Positions 3,622 through 58,185 of a stretch of DNA of 64,000 nt are shown piece after piece. The number at the start of each line of letters is the position of its first letter. The stretch's first letter is position 1. The notes beneath the pieces are model-generated. The model made no database searches. It was not told the DNA's origin and saw only the letters and a program-made list of their open reading frames with translations. The DNA is taken from NCBI GenBank assembly GCA_964230645.1, contig CAXRHT010000001.1:224001-288000 (forward strand), written 5' to 3'. Origin of the DNA: Bdellovibrionales bacterium. GTDB lineage: Bacteria > Bdellovibrionota > Bdellovibrionia > Bdellovibrionales > JAGQZY01. Position numbers and translations under genes: made by a program.

Positions 3622-5397
3622 CTACTCAATCAGAATATCAAAAGGAAGTCTTGTCTTAAAGCTTTCTTGAATCGACTTTTTCTTAGCACTCAGAGCATTT
3701 CTTAAACTCTCAGGTAAAATCTGATTAAGCAAAGAGACCGAAACTCCCCCCATTTGTTTTAAAATGGCTTGAAAGGGCGAGAGCGGTTTCGGGTAAATAA
3801 CCACATCATAATCTTCAAGCTTGGCCAACTCCGCAGCTTTTAAAACCGCTTCGTTCAGACCTCCCATCTCATCGACAAGTCCTTTTTCAAGAGCATCCTT
3901 ACCAATCCACACTCGTCCTTGCGCCACTTCGTGAGTTTGTTCAATAGTTTCAAAGCTCGTGCGGCCATTGGTCACCACTGTCAAAAAGTCTTCATAAACC
4001 TGCTCGACAACATTCTGAACCTTTTGTCTTTCCTCTAAATCCACAGGACGCACAAGGGCATTTAAATCGGAAAAGCGGTGAGACTTATAAGTATCAAAGG
4101 TCATTCCCACTTTTTTATTCCAAAAATCTTTTGTGGCAAAACGAAGCCCAAAAACACCAATGGAGCCGGTAATGGTCGAGGGTTCTGCAAATATATACTG
4201 GCTTCCCGCTGAAATATAATAGCCTCCACTGGCGGCTACATTTCCGAAAGACGTCACAAAAGGTTTGGCGTCTTTTAACCACTGAGTGGAGGTCCAAATC
4301 ACATCAGATGCCAAAGCGGATCCTCCAGGGCTATTCACTCGCATCACAACAGCCTTCACTTCCTCTTCGCGCCGAATTTCCGTTAAAATTTCCGTGAGCT
4401 TTCTTGAGGAAATCCCCTCACCATCGGTTTCCTCTGTGGCAATACCACCTTCAGCAAAAACCACGGCGATTTTATTCTCTGAGCGCGCAACACGTGAATC
4501 CTTGTATTCCCGATAATACTTTCTCCAAGGTACGTATTTGGTCTTTTCTTCGGCTCCCGAGAGTTCTTTTAACTTCTCATCGACTTCCTCTTGGGAAGCT
4601 AACAGGTTTACAAACCCAGCCTTAAGCGCATCGGAGGCATACATGACAGAAAGCTCATCAGCCATCTCGTTCAAAGTCTCCACACTATTGTTGGATTTCT
4701 CAGAGGCGTATTTAAGAAGTTGATCCCAACTGCCTTGCACAAGAGCGCTAATCTGCTCGCGACTTGATTCACTCATTTCCTCATTAATAAAAGGCTCAAT
4801 GGCTGATTTGTATTTCCCCACTCGAAAAACTTGCGGCTCAACATCTAATTTTTTTGCCGTATTCTTTAAAAAGCTAAGCTTGGAAAAGAGACCATCCCAT
4901 TCAAAAAATCCTTTAGGGTAAAGAATAATTTCATCACTGGCTGAGGCCACAAGGTAATCCATCTCCGAATAGGCTTCTGCGTAAGAAATCAAAAACTTCC
5001 CTGATTTCTTAAAGCGAACAAGCTCACGGCGAAGCCCCTCGGCATTGGCCATTGCGGTCATCAGATTATCAAAACGGAGAATCACTCCTTGAATACGATC
5101 ATCTTTAGCGGCTTGTTGTAAAACCAAGGAAATTTCATAAAGCCCACTGACGGGCGGTTCATCGTAATTAACAATAGATGAGAAAATATCCCGCCGACTC
5201 ACATGATCTTTGAGTGGGCCATCAAAGGTGATTTCAAGAACGGAATTGTTCTCAATCCCCAACATCTCAGGCTCCCACTCGCTTGTGGTCGAAGATGCCA
5301 TAATGGCAATAAACATCATCAGCCCAAAAAACATCAAACTAAAAGCCAAAGTCGTCCCCATCATCGACGCCATAACAACTTTAAAAAACTGCTTCAA
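3622..5397 (-). CDS. sppA: Signal peptide peptidase SppA (67K type)
   Basis: RVGKYKSAIEPF, RVNSPGGSALASD, AASGGYY, TGSIGVFG and AQGRVW motifs. TTG start at 5397 behind GGAGGAG; the ORF-track extension to 5454 runs into a repeat. Confidence 0.95.
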   Translation of the reverse strand: MKQFFKVVMASMMGTTLAFSLMFFGLMMFIAIMASSTTSEWEPEMLGIENNSVLEITFDGPLKDHVSRRDIFSSIVNYDEPPVSGLYEISLVLQQAAKDDRIQGVILRFDNLMTAMANAEGLRRELVRFKKSGKFLISYAEAYSEMDYLVASASDEIILYPKGFFEWDGLFSKLSFLKNTAKKLDVEPQVFRVGKYKSAIEPFINEEMSESSREQISALVQGSWDQLLKYASEKSNNSVETLNEMADELSVMYASDALKAGFVNLLASQEEVDEKLKELSGAEEKTKYVPWRKYYREYKDSRVARSENKIAVVFAEGGIATEETDGEGISSRKLTEILTEIRREEEVKAVVMRVNSPGGSALASDVIWTSTQWLKDAKPFVTSFGNVAASGGYYISAGSQYIFAEPSTITGSIGVFGLRFATKDFWNKKVGMTFDTYKSHRFSDLNALVRPVDLEERQKVQNVVEQVYEDFLTVVTNGRTSFETIEQTHEVAQGRVWIGKDALEKGLVDEMGGLNEAVLKAAELAKLEDYDVVIYPKPLSPFQAILKQMGGVSVSLLNQILPESLRNALSAKKKSIQESFKTRLPFDILIE

Positions 5398-5431
5398 AAC
5401 TCCTCCTACGAACCTTCTCAAAAAAGACTGG

Positions 5432-5601
5432 CCTGTGCCTTCCGTAGGAAACAATTAGAATGTCTTTGAGTACAGGCTCGAGCAGCGAGCATTGCGTATC
5501 TTGGAGCGCGACATGCAATGGCGCGATCCGGGAGACGAAATGCACCCGCATGCGTGCCTGTGCTCAAAGACATTCTAATTGTTTCCTACGGAAGGCACAG
5601 G
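5432..5601 (+). repeat. Long-stem hairpin element, family I (copy A)
   Basis: 46-bp inverted arms (5432-5477 and 5556-5601, one T.G pair) around a 78-nt core homologous to 54403-54480. Confidence 0.9.
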
Positions 5602-5612
5602 ACAGGCCACAA

Positions 5613-6617
5613 TTATGCTTCGCGAACCATCTTCGCGCAAGCTTCGATCCAGTGATCATCGTCATTGAGGCAGGGCACAAATCGAAAGGACTCTCCTCCC
5701 GCGGCTAGAAAGCTCTCTTTTCCACCAAGAGCGATCTCTTCAAGGGTTTCTAACCCATCAACAGAGAATCCAGGACAGATGACACTCACCTTTTTATGTC
5801 CCTTTCCGGCCAACTCTTTGAGTTTGTTCTCTGTTGAAGGTTCTAACCACTTCTGACGCCCCAATCGGGATTGAAAACTAACACTATAATCCTCGGGACT
5901 GAGGCCCAACTCTTTGCTTAAAAGTTGAGCGGTCTTAAGGCACTGAGCTCGGTAACAAGTTTTTAAAACGTTTTGTGGTGCTTTTTCACAGCAGTTTTCT
6001 ACTTTCAGGCAGTGCTGTCCTGTGGGGTCCGTTTTGAAAAGGTGACTTTCTGGAAGACCGTGAAAACTCATTAATAAGTGCTCACCTTTCTGAGGCAGCC
6101 CTTGAGTCTTTAAAAAAACACCATAGGCTTTAATGAAGCGAGAATCATCAAAATAAGGCTCTATTACCGTGGCTTTTTCATTCTCAAAATACTGCTCAAA
6201 TTTTTCAAGACCCGTTTTAACCGTTGAGTCCGCATACTGCGGGTACTGAGGAAAGAAAATGATCTTCTCGCAGTCTTTAAGCTCATCGTGGGCGCTTTTA
6301 AAACCAGGCTCACCGTATCTCATGGCAACCACGACTTGGTAGTTTTGCCCCAATTTTTGCTGAAGCGCCTGAGCGGCTTTTTTTGTTTCCACTAACAGAG
6401 GAGAACCCTCACTCGTCCAAACTTTTTTATAATTGGCTGCTGATTTCGATTTCCTAAAAGGCACGATGATCCCCTTAACTAAAAGGGCTCGAAAAAACCA
6501 GGGCAGTTGGATGACATGTTTATCCATTAGAAATTCACCCAAATAGCGTCCTAAGGCTTTGGAATCGGGTCCATCCGGAGTTCCTAGGTTTGAGAAAACC
6601 ACTCCTATTTTAGCCAA
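5613..6617 (-). CDS. hemH: Ferrochelatase
   Basis: NLGTP, PQYPQYA, SFHGLP, FQSRLG-WLEP, LETLEEI and PCLND motifs. Likely TTG start at 6617. Confidence 0.95.
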   Translation of the reverse strand: MAKIGVVFSNLGTPDGPDSKALGRYLGEFLMDKHVIQLPWFFRALLVKGIIVPFRKSKSAANYKKVWTSEGSPLLVETKKAAQALQQKLGQNYQVVVAMRYGEPGFKSAHDELKDCEKIIFFPQYPQYADSTVKTGLEKFEQYFENEKATVIEPYFDDSRFIKAYGVFLKTQGLPQKGEHLLMSFHGLPESHLFKTDPTGQHCLKVENCCEKAPQNVLKTCYRAQCLKTAQLLSKELGLSPEDYSVSFQSRLGRQKWLEPSTENKLKELAGKGHKKVSVICPGFSVDGLETLEEIALGGKESFLAAGGESFRFVPCLNDDDHWIEACAKMVREA

Positions 6618-7833
6618 AGTGGCCTCCTTCAATTTTCTTTAAATTTTTCCTAGCCTTGAGCAAAATTTTACTCAACCCTAAATCCCCTAGATAATTTCCA
6701 ATAAAGAGATAAGGAGATTTGTCGTTTTCTAGATCCACGAGAAACTCTCTTAAGGCACTGTCATAAAGAGGAATCTTACCGGGCCACTGATAGACATAGG
6801 TTTTCTTTGGATCCACCCTCTCACCAGTAAGTTTATAACGATCCGTCATCACGTAGCGGATCAGAGCGGTATGACTCATATGGGAGAAATCCATTTTGTC
6901 GTCATTGAGAATCCAAGTTTCTGAAACGTGCGAGCCTCCACGACCTTTAAATATATTGTTATTAAATAAGACTCCCAAAGAATTAAAGCTTTCTTTTTTC
7001 GGAAATAAGCAGCCAAATCCGTCTTTCTTTTGAGCCACTTTGTTTTTTCCAAAACACAAAGTGACGGAAGTGAGAGAGACCGACTTTGTTTCAAGTATAC
7101 TTTTTGGAATATCCAACCTCTGACTATTCACAAGGCTTCTCATATCAGCCAAGCTCACTGCAAAAATAGTGGGATTTTGATTGAGATTCTCTTTTTCGGT
7201 TTCCAGAAAAAACTCACAACCATTTTCCACTAGATATTTGCGGGTCTGCTCGATCCACTCTCCCATTCCACCTTCAGGAGCGACGGATCCTCTTAACTTA
7301 CCTTTCTTTGGCCTTTTCTTAAGGGAGTCTAAAATCAATTGGGCATCAAGGTTTTTGGATTCGGTCGCGTAAACACCCTGCATACCGGGCTCCAAAAGGT
7401 TTTCTGTGACAGAAGCCCCAAGCAGTCGACATCCCCAGTCCCACAAACTCTCATCAGGACTTGCAACCAATTTGTCTTTACCCCATTTTGCCATCAGAGC
7501 AAATTTAGCCAGGGGAAGACTTTCAAAAAGACTCAGTGGCCAGCGGCTCATCTCTCCGTTGTTATAGACATAACGTTTACGCGCTTTCCTTTTTTTGGGG
7601 CGTAATTTCACCCCAATAACCGACGCGACTCGCTCAAGCTCTTTATTGGCAAGAAAAGCATTGGCTCCCTGTTCGATCAAAAATGGGGAATCCAACTTAG
7701 TACCAAGCAGTCCTCCTACTTTGGTTTCTTTTTCAAAAACCCGAACATTATAGCCTTTCTCTGTTAAATAGAAGGCCTGCATTAGCCCTGAGAAACCGCC
7801 ACCAATGATGTCAATTTTTATATCTTTACTCAC
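6610..7833 (-). CDS. hemY: Protoporphyrinogen oxidase (HemY/HemG FAD type)
   Basis: GGGFSGL dinucleotide-binding motif, EQGANAFL, GFGCLFP, LGVLFN; lies in the heme operon. Confidence 0.88.
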   Translation of the reverse strand: MSKDIKIDIIGGGFSGLMQAFYLTEKGYNVRVFEKETKVGGLLGTKLDSPFLIEQGANAFLANKELERVASVIGVKLRPKKRKARKRYVYNNGEMSRWPLSLFESLPLAKFALMAKWGKDKLVASPDESLWDWGCRLLGASVTENLLEPGMQGVYATESKNLDAQLILDSLKKRPKKGKLRGSVAPEGGMGEWIEQTRKYLVENGCEFFLETEKENLNQNPTIFAVSLADMRSLVNSQRLDIPKSILETKSVSLTSVTLCFGKNKVAQKKDGFGCLFPKKESFNSLGVLFNNNIFKGRGGSHVSETWILNDDKMDFSHMSHTALIRYVMTDRYKLTGERVDPKKTYVYQWPGKIPLYDSALREFLVDLENDKSPYLFIGNYLGDLGLSKILLKARKNLKKIEGGHFG

Positions 7834-15481: not shown

Positions 15482-15594
15482 ACTTGCTGCCCAAAGGTAG
15501 CGCTAGCGTGTCAAACATTACGCACCTTAGCTACCACTCGGAAGCAGGTACCTATAGGTGACGCAGAGGCGCTACCAATGGGAAGCAGGTACCT
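15482..15594. repeat. REP-like cluster: one inverted and two direct ~34-nt units
   Basis: ACGCA-N5-GCTACCA-N3-GGAAGCAGGTACCT at 15520 and 15561; a degenerate inverted copy at 15482-15509. Confidence 0.7.
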
Positions 15595-15602
15595 TTTGGT
15601 GA

Positions 15603-27395: not shown

Positions 27396-27396
27396 A

Positions 27397-27555
27397 GTGA
27401 TCCCGAGAAATGTTCATAGTCATCCTGAGATTTATTCATAGTCATCCTGAGACTTGTTCATTGTCATCCTGAGCGAAGCGAAGGATCTTAGGTCTTTCGC
27501 TTCGCTCAAGACGACATGCTCTCATCCAAGAAGACAGGCTTTCATCCGATATGAC
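27397..27555. repeat. GTCATCYTGAGC palindromic (REP/RPE-like) element with tandem terminal duplications
   Basis: Core palindrome at 27462-27516; 22-nt units start at 27397, 27419 and 27441; 20-nt units end at 27535 and 27555. Confidence 0.85.
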
Positions 27556-31745: not shown

Positions 31746-31888
31746 GAAGGCCTCGGTTGCCTTCGTTTGGCGGGAACATTCGCTAAAATAAACCGCGGCT
31801 CCTGCCTAACCTAAATTTCGCCCTCTGGGCGAAAACGCGTCCGCTTTTAGGAGGTTCATTTTAGCGAATGTTCCCGCCAAACGAAGGC
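31746..31888 (-). repeat. Long-stem hairpin element, family II (copy C)
   Basis: 36-bp arms (31759-31794 and 31853-31888); shares GAAGGCCTCGGTTG, GCTCCTGC and CGCGTCC motifs with 41037-41203. Confidence 0.85.
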
Positions 31889-31928
31889 TATCGTGGTTCG
31901 AACGTGTCCTTGATCAAATTAGCTTTTT

Positions 31929-33356: not shown

Positions 33357-33465
33357 TGTCATCTTGAGTATCGTACTGTCATCTTGAGCGTCAGCGAAAG
33401 ATCTTTCGCTATCGCTCAAGATGACATTATGAGGTTCAAGATGATAATATGAGGTTCAGGATGAC
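33357..33465. repeat. GTCATCYTGAGC palindromic element with 20-nt tandem terminal duplications
   Basis: Core TGTCATCTTGAGCG...CGCTCAAGATGACA at 33377-33426; extra units at 33357, 33435 and 33455. Confidence 0.85.
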
Positions 33466-41036: not shown

Positions 41037-41203
41037 GAAGGCCTCGGTTGGCATTCAATCCTGTTTTGCTGGAGTTTTTAAGACACCTATTTTCATAGGC
41101 ACAGCTCCTGCTTTGCTGGCATCACCCTGCGGGTGAGCGCGTCCCGCTTGCCAGAGCCTACGAAAATAGGTGTCTTAAAAACTCCAGCAAAACAGAATTG
41201 AAT
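41037..41203 (-). repeat. Long-stem hairpin element, family II (copy D)
   Basis: 48-bp arms (41053-41100 and 41156-41203, two mismatches) around a 55-nt structured core. Confidence 0.88.
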
Positions 41204-54344: not shown

Positions 54345-54538
54345 CATTTTGTGATCGAGTTCTTCGAATCTGCTTAGGATTTTGGGAGAATTTCGGAGGG
54401 GCTCGAGCAACGAGCGCTGCGTATCTTGGGCTGCGACATGCAATGGCGCAGCCCGGGAGACGAAGTGCACCCGGGTGCGTGCCGCTCCGAAAGGCTCCCA
54501 AAATCTTAAGCAGATTCGAAGAACTCGATCACAAAATG
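54345..54538 (+). repeat. Long-stem hairpin element, family I (copy B)
   Basis: 58-bp arms (54345-54402 and 54481-54538) around a 78-nt core, 66/78 identical to 5478-5555. Confidence 0.9.
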
Positions 54539-54605
54539 CCCCCGCCCCAAGTTTCTCGACACGCCCGAGTTTGTCCATCCTCCCCCAAGCGTCTATAACA
54601 ATTCT

Positions 54606-58093: not shown

Positions 58094-58100
58094 CAGGGGA

Positions 58101-58185
58101 AGATCCTTCGCTCCGCTCAGGATGACAGTGGGCTCCTCTGGATGACAGTGGGCTTCTCTTGATGACAGTGGCTCCTCAGGATGAC
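58101..58185. repeat. Half GTCATCCTGAGC element with three tandem terminal duplications
   Basis: AGATCCTTCGCTCCGCTCAGGATGAC, then AGTGGGCT...GATGAC units at a 20/20/19-nt period. Confidence 0.85.

Follow-up and report, generated by a model that had tools for sequence, protein, structure and literature searches.

REPINs are non-coding intergenic hairpins of 90-200 nt, the arms of which differ from copy to copy and pair with compensatory changes (PMC3116915, PMC3337134). attC sites are single-stranded DNA (ssDNA) hairpins selected by structure; G.T pairs, a skew towards purines and a GAA tip favour one of their strands (PMC5027507). The SRM/NTS repeats of the Ssn system are oriented ssDNA hairpin repeats found at many intergenic sites (PMC11893778). 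Among Y1 transposase systems, IS200/IS605 elements use the lagging-strand template (PMC6006769), and TIRtrons, or TIRYT, are associated with TnpA-Y1 subclass 2.1 (PMC3733652, PMC6006769).

Here we describe F1, a family of dispersed hairpins noticed in a 64,000-nt stretch (the window; contig CAXRHT010000001.1) of a Bdellovibrionales genome, referred to as G000. F1 resembles REPINs in its variable self-pairing stem with compensatory changes, its A/T-rich flank, its mosaics and its clusters (PMC3116915, PMC3337134), as well as in its many intergenic copies, which are patchy between relatives. In REPINs, however, conservation is found in the REP ends and variation between them, whereas F1 has a conserved, non-palindromic 78-nt tip and varying ends. 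F1 has no conserved inverted REP end units; its distal arms are 26% identical, at the level of shuffles, and no end motif occurs on both sides. The initial annotation had described F1 as the reverse of REPIN logic. This holds for the place of the conserved part but not for the variable self-paired stems, which the cited descriptions present as a REPIN trait. Moreover, F1 in G000 has no cognate Y1/RAYT gene flanked by the same repeat, an association found for subfamilies in genomes G093 and G041/G024.

The likeness to attC lies in a strand-biased fold (G.T pairs, purine skew, GAA tip). In contrast to attC sites, which have a conserved base and a variable tip (PMC5027507), F1 conserves the tip, lacks RYYYAAC/GTTRRRY ends (by inspection) and cassette arrays, and is dispersed in both orientations beside housekeeping genes. 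F1 shares orientation, hairpin structure and many intergenic sites with SRM/NTS repeats, and the sister families F3 and F4 abut SRM-like repeats; nevertheless, F1 has no CGTCAT-type motif and is three times longer (PMC11893778), and no small GIY-YIG gene was found in G000. F1 differs from MITEs in that its ends differ per copy and its flanks carry no consistent direct repeat indicative of target duplication, and from retron msr-msd or RT-linked RNAs in that G000 has no RVT_1. F1 fails the defining features of REPIN, MITE, attC, retron and SRM. It is best filed as an inside-out variant of REP/REPIN-type palindromic repeats that is undescribed in the literature searched; a description of an F1-type family was not found in the open-access literature.

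Two F1 copies in the window

The features of the two window copies are as follows.

3622..5397, - strand: sppA, host gene; start set at 5397 by comparison with relatives
5428..5605, + strand: complete F1 copy A of 178 nt; sits in the hemH-sppA spacer and runs antisense to the two genes
5428..5477, + strand: 5' arm of copy A, 48/50 paired with the 3' arm
5478..5555, + strand: conserved core of copy A, 78 nt, a bulged hairpin with a GCA triloop at the tip
5556..5605, + strand: 3' arm of copy A
5613..6632, - strand: hemH (ferrochelatase), host gene; stop 7 nt from copy A
54345..54538, + strand: complete F1 copy B of 194 nt, in sense orientation relative to its neighbours
54345..54402, + strand: 5' arm of copy B, 54/58 paired
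54403..54480, + strand: conserved core of copy B, 78 nt
54481..54538, + strand: 3' arm of copy B
54539..54548, + strand: C-rich 3' tail behind the arm of copy B; the tail is degenerate in copy A

The inner arms of copy A (5432-5477/5556-5601) pair at 45/46 positions, and extension to 5428-5605 yields the 48/50 given above. The cores of A and B are identical at 66/78 positions. These values bear out the core identity and the near-perfect 46- and 58-bp arms initially reported. With the sppA start at 5397, copy A does not overlap this gene. Copy B is flanked by an HD-GYP-type gene (the label is a below-cut-off NCBIfam match) and an SDR gene, both on the + strand.

Six of the 12 differences between the cores make up three strict compensatory pairs, and two convert G.A into C-G. 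The others change A-T into G.T (one), swap G.A for A.G (two) or are unpaired (one). When anchored at the core, the arms of the two copies match at 11/47 positions. In both copies, the + strand is the better fold (RNA z of -4.4 and -4.8 vs -2.2 and -2.7).

Chance does not account for the hairpins: contig C1 contains 38 seeds of inverted repeats (16 bp, at most 400 nt apart), and a shuffle of C1 none. Short-read contigs span 5441-5592 at 100% in three of four runs, two of which are possibly from the source sample, and an assembly artefact is not evident. The sequencing runs containing window sequence are marine.

F1 and sister families in the genome

Further copies had been expected, and an iterated profile search of the 3.78-Mb assembly identified 28 F1 copies. 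Arms of 40-59 bp, specific to each copy, are present in 27 of them; the 28th has its own arms too, plus a 43-nt hairpin inserted in the core. Mean identity is 81% in the core and 34% in the arms. The claim that the arms lack similarity stands for the 11/47 matches of A and B and for the distal arms, which are at shuffle level, but not for the 12 bp nearest the core: identity falls from 43% in these to 37% in the next 12 bp and 26% beyond, shuffles giving 25%. Cores 95-98% alike have arms merely 18-52% alike, and the Mantel correlation between core and arms is weak (r=0.17, p=0.06). The four window arms tested match nothing else in the genome beyond chance matches of 15-29 nt.

A CCC lies within 9 nt of the 3' arm end in 23/27 copies, forming the C-rich tail, and the 5' flank is A-rich (51%). 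Tail and flank make the F1 unit polar from end to end. The F1 core is on the C-rich strand in 20/28 copies (p=0.04), not on the lagging-strand template, in contrast to IS200/IS605 elements (PMC6006769).

Three sister families, F2 (n=11), F3 (n=4) and F4 (n=9), have branched cores inside the same kind of arms. Two members are in the window.

31751..31896, - strand: F3 copy, with a branched 58-nt core, conserved outer ends and, between the two, variable arms of ~35 bp
41053..41203, - strand: F2 copy, with copy-specific 48-bp arms, a branched core of 55-62 nt and a C-rich tail as in F1

Additional features of this repeat landscape were observed. One F1 copy (C1:640963-641138) is located inside an open frame where a type II secretion gene begins. 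F1 arms show a weak periodic pattern 7-23 positions away from the core, with AAAAGCTT near +7 to +14 and AATTT near +19 to +23, and an A.G mismatch is kept at +2 to +6 in 14 cases. A mini-hairpin of 40-43 nt interrupts the core in four copies, one of F1 and three of F4 (C3:487004, C1:142900, C1:733500 and C3:591776), and a motif search detected it nowhere else; it is a repeat that targets F1/F4 repeats. Further core types (36-60 nt) in similar perfect arms occur at C3:702274-702377 and C3:715930-716053 in G000, and at loci L428, L433, L439 and L451; one such type is common to G000 and genus g4. Hairpin repeats of the GTCATCCTGAG type are found at window positions 27396-27554, 33357-33465 and 58100-58167, and resemble an Ssn-related motif (PMC11893778). 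The GGAAGCAGGTACC repeat occurs ~18 times in the genome, and two of these copies stand in tandem at window positions 15530-15602. This family resembles the Y1-flanking repeats of G093, and differs from the ends of the two Y1 genes of G000.

Fold and strand of the core

In 27 aligned F1 copies, 92% of cells are paired and 21/39 pairs vary on both sides, 6/39 being arm pairs, in a test that ignores the relatedness of the copies. None of 500 shuffles reached the F1 value, and slid controls gave 34-45%. The covariation proposed from copies A and B thus extends to the family. The most constant words of the core, GCGTATC and GRAGACG, lie opposite one another when it is folded.

The core strand folds better in 27/27 copies with DNA parameters and in 25/27 with RNA parameters. 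Among 61 leftover arm mismatches, read on the core strand, G.T outnumbers A.C (20 vs 6, p=0.009), and purine.purine outnumbers pyrimidine.pyrimidine (34 vs 1); the bias is much weaker in a pool of 123 copies from many genomes, in which arm ends were drawn automatically. Selection for folding thus acts on one strand of the core.

In 26/28 F1 copies, the tip forms a GNA triloop, and all four N occur. In genome G040, the GNA loop is largely lost, and other loops are mostly found. In DNA, GNA loops greatly exceed the stability of the RNA counterpart tested (PMC13037366).

Distribution among genomes

BLASTN with the core gave no match in 40 relatives. Related cores were recovered by covariance models, the approach suggested in the initial annotation, in 9/61 genomes in a first round and in 22/150 genomes of the order, representing 16/68 genera; model R2 came from an alignment with three antisense rows among 61. 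The closest relative searched has no F1 core by covariance model, nor were related cores found outside the order (0/120 genomes of a phylum sample, covariance models). Carrier genomes have from 1 to >50 copies; F1 counts per genome are lower bounds, because 27-150 candidates were scored in each, and may include antisense duplicates. Inspected matches in relatives have their own arms, typically of 25-90 bp. F2-type cores occur in 7/40 relatives.

A strict core pattern had no match across a genome contig collection. A looser pattern hit at least 120 loci; among the matches listed, six had arms and the others were chance matches, and the five armed loci with titles were from Bdellovibrionales or Pseudobdellovibrionaceae. 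The core pattern had one match, without arms, in viral sequences, none in phages and one chance match in plasmids.

Gain at sites and behaviour of the arms

The initial annotation had suggested looking for empty sites in relatives, and such sites were found. The element is absent from the hemH-sppA spacer in all 12 relatives with that gene order (<55 nt in nine of them); without the element, 37 nt of this spacer are left in G000, which is the size of the empty spacers. Similarly, the rsmD-aspC spacer is empty in 17/19 genomes (46-115 nt) and filled in G000 and in G015, a member of another genus; the non-element remainder in G000 (~50 nt) equals an empty spacer. In G016 and G020, copies are found one and two spacers beyond rsmD-aspC. 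The comparison with empty spacers indicates that the arms belong to the insert, and are not duplicated target. Since most orthologous spacers are empty and the insert brings both of its arms, F1 is likely mobile, and its arms are neither duplicated target nor captured guides.

G031 and G043 feature tandem, nested, partial and near-identical copies, as in REP mosaics; the tandem, nested and near-identical ones look recent. Inserts of 60-120 nt, or whole further copies, interrupt the core stems of L408 and L388 (G093) and of L495, L496 and L515 (G043, G031). The insert at L408 resembles sequence beside a decayed core at the Y1 locus of G093. No excision joint was detected in the contig sets of four runs; contigs drop rare variants.

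Changes in one arm are mirrored in the other. In nine homologous copies of G093, 114 departures from the majority are present in both arms and 19 in one arm, 9/19 of the latter being an artefact of the chosen cut point. Indels are mirrored as well as substitutions. At the dapB site of G006 and G010, the cores are identical over 77 nt, while the arms are 52% identical and the third codon positions of dapB 51%; the arms therefore drift at a roughly neutral rate. Relative to the same flanks, the core is inverted between G041 and G024 at kup-rlmH, and it is also inverted relative to the flanks between copies of G031. Arms overlap 13-21 nt of a gene end in 2/123 copies, showing that they can extend into flanks. 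Arms are related by descent in four sets, namely G093, G024/G041, family F4 and one metagenome set.

One arm is likely copied from the other by template switching. Arm homogenisation and spacer inversion are known outcomes of this process (PMC5941160, PMC8604942), and quasi-palindrome correction as described in these reports explains mirrored substitutions and indels as well as inversion of the spacer. In contrast, it gives no account of a conserved, uncorrected core or of spread to new sites. Since template switching would also erase core mismatches, their survival would imply selection.

A model for the spread of F1

We consider it moderately probable that F1 is a dispersed DNA hairpin, the tip of which is read as folded ssDNA by a strand-transfer enzyme that copies the unit, the arms being kept identical by copying. 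This putative enzyme likely recognises the conserved asymmetric tip and likely carries copies of the complete unit to new gene ends. Internal core mismatches may survive because the protein reads them, while the arms would need only to form a duplex of ~4-5 helical turns. Template switching during replication would homogenise the arms and flip the core. The mover may be HUH-like or another ssDNA strand-transfer enzyme, and Y1 (TIRYT-type) ends may act as an extra vehicle in some lineages only. The initial view of F1 as a non-autonomous structured element, with a conserved tip and free arms, is in line with these data.

More tentatively, these hairpins could be self-renewing ssDNA replicators that operate without RAYT, Ssn, RT or IS transposase. 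An attC-like tip would be read by a putative, perhaps host-encoded enzyme, and each move would rebuild one arm from the other. If so, the unit would hold no sequence information outside the tip, and could borrow the ends of other repeats.

Search for a partner enzyme

The initial annotation had proposed a trans-acting enzyme that recognises the loop, which was not found; of the Y1, GIY-YIG and RT genes that it suggested, none flanks a copy in G000. Inspection by eye of the genes beside the 52 F1-F4 copies of G000 revealed no nuclease, transposase or RT of the mobile-element kind; neighbours include uvrA, uvrC and an SRAP-like gene. Clustering of F1 neighbour genes returned housekeeping genes only, and no Pfam match of the mobile kind was found among 30 genes between close copy pairs.

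The partner search took in RT, GIY-YIG, IS110, Y1 and tyrosine recombinases. RT was rejected, as RVT_1 is absent from G000 and from 6/12 element-rich genomes. The GIY-YIG match in G000 is just UvrC-sized, and no copy lies in the 1.3 kb adjoining two small GIY-YIG matches of G031/G043. IS110 was discarded too (none in G000; 0/5). None of the three tyrosine recombinases of G000 is beside a copy. A short tyrosine recombinase that seemed to be shared was rejected: it is present in 115/150 genomes and missing in G010, G031 and G043, and no core was found near 13 of its loci.

This tyrosine recombinase (~180 aa, the size of the catalytic domain; L539:1906-2514, or C2:155405-156013 in G000) is a single-copy gene in the 115/150 genomes of the order, usually adjoining a conserved helix-turn-helix-like gene. 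It is near a GC-skew switch in G000 and near mid-chromosome in many one-contig genomes.

Y1 genes require closer attention, since F1 copies could be miniatures of a RAYT-like Y1 (TIRYT-type) transposon, in which the terminal repeats move, the core is cargo and copies without repeats are old remnants. A Y1 gene is present in 47/61 genomes searched. In G093, nine F1 copies have as their ends the repeat flanking the Y1 gene of that genome, and directly behind this gene a repeat pair encloses a decayed core. Similarly, in G041/G024 the outer ends of copies equal repeats flanking a Y1 gene, although such pairs also enclose other cores or none. A subset of copies in G093, G041 and G024 is thus bounded by local Y1 inverted repeats, as are TIRtrons; the TIRYT descriptions consulted make no mention of a conserved structured core inside such pairs (PMC3733652, PMC6006769). 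These Y1 proteins may belong to subclass 2.1, judging from a REP_Tyr_transpos NCBIfam match below the cut-off. Repeats may also outlive their enzyme. For instance, G000 has 248 Ssn-type motif matches, and neither an ssn gene nor a small GIY-YIG gene was found; because these motifs persist, the enzyme that moved F1 may likewise have been lost.

However, most copies of G093 and all those of G000 are without Y1-repeat ends. The two RAYT-like Y1 genes of G000 have their own GGTACC-type repeats, the pairs of which do not hold the F1 core, and no core was found near 32 Y1 loci. Genomes G040, G031, G043 and G130 have 18-54 core matches each, and searching them with a profile built from 18 relatives gave no Y1 match, G031 being one contig (1.8 Mb); Y1 was rejected as the general partner. 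Moreover, remnants would not hold an invariant core across families. An origin of F1 as Y1 miniatures is therefore unlikely.

At C1:146487-148144 of G093 (L376 / L399), an F1 copy bounded by Y1 repeats and a core-less arm twin flank a two-gene module, the first gene of which is AbiEi-like (below cut-off). This arrangement suggests that the module is cargo carried between Y1-repeat ends.

RNA-level and host functions

It is unlikely that F1 copies are primarily RNA-level hairpins (terminators, RNase III sites or small RNAs) kept by the host. Location at gene ends would suit this role. Among the 123 pooled copies, 39 lie between convergent and 13 between divergent genes. Stop codons less than about 30 nt away are commoner 3' of the element (44 cases) than 5' of it (20 cases). 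The A-rich 5' flank supplies a T-tract behind the hairpin on the other strand, and G.T wobbles fit RNA too. In contrast, in co-directional gene pairs the folding strand is more often the non-mRNA strand (29 antisense vs 15 sense copies). Sites are gained sporadically, tips are triloops rather than GNRA tetraloops, there is no shared promoter, and Rfam 15 covariance models gave no match over any copy at E<=1 or E<=10.

The sense/antisense and convergent/divergent counts indicate that the folding strand is not tied to mRNA. Polarity belongs to the element itself, as initially proposed, the core strand folding better while orientation does not follow transcription. Of the earlier alternative of a structured ssDNA or RNA element, structure is upheld, and the sequence data favour ssDNA over RNA as the folding substrate. 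Secondary use of F1 hairpins as terminators is likely, and is compatible with the copied ssDNA hairpin that we prefer.

We regard as very unlikely that the core is a host ssDNA signal (a primase, SSB-excluding or fork-restart site) with rare duplication and no dedicated mover. GNA mini-hairpins have been found at ssDNA priming sites and resist SSB (PMC13037366), the core is biased towards one strand (20/28 copies), and genomes of 1.8-2.4 Mb keep dozens of copies without Y1 or IS110. Against this stand the restriction of cores to 22/150 genomes of the order, the negative result in the closest relative searched, copy numbers from 1 to >50, and nested and tandem copies.

That the arms are captured or duplicated sequence, derived from inverted target duplication or from other DNA as guides, is highly improbable: arms are unique per copy and 2/123 copies reach into gene ends, but empty spacers fall short of the length of one arm plus the remainder, arms are related by descent in the four sets named above, and the four window arms tested have only chance matches elsewhere in the genome.

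Implications

The present analysis adds to the initial description the link to Y1 repeats in two lineages, four rich carriers without Y1, empty sites, and counts of strands and mirrored changes. The spread and persistence of REP-like repeats have long been in question, and are usually explained by RAYT. A tip conserved across the order, and thriving in genomes in which no RAYT was found, points to another ssDNA-processing activity. The F1 core gives a defined 80-nt oligonucleotide bait for finding that activity, and the 50-bp arms are a clean natural reporter of arm-to-arm copying. A site read by structure, with stems free of sequence requirements, could also prove useful for recombination or nicking.
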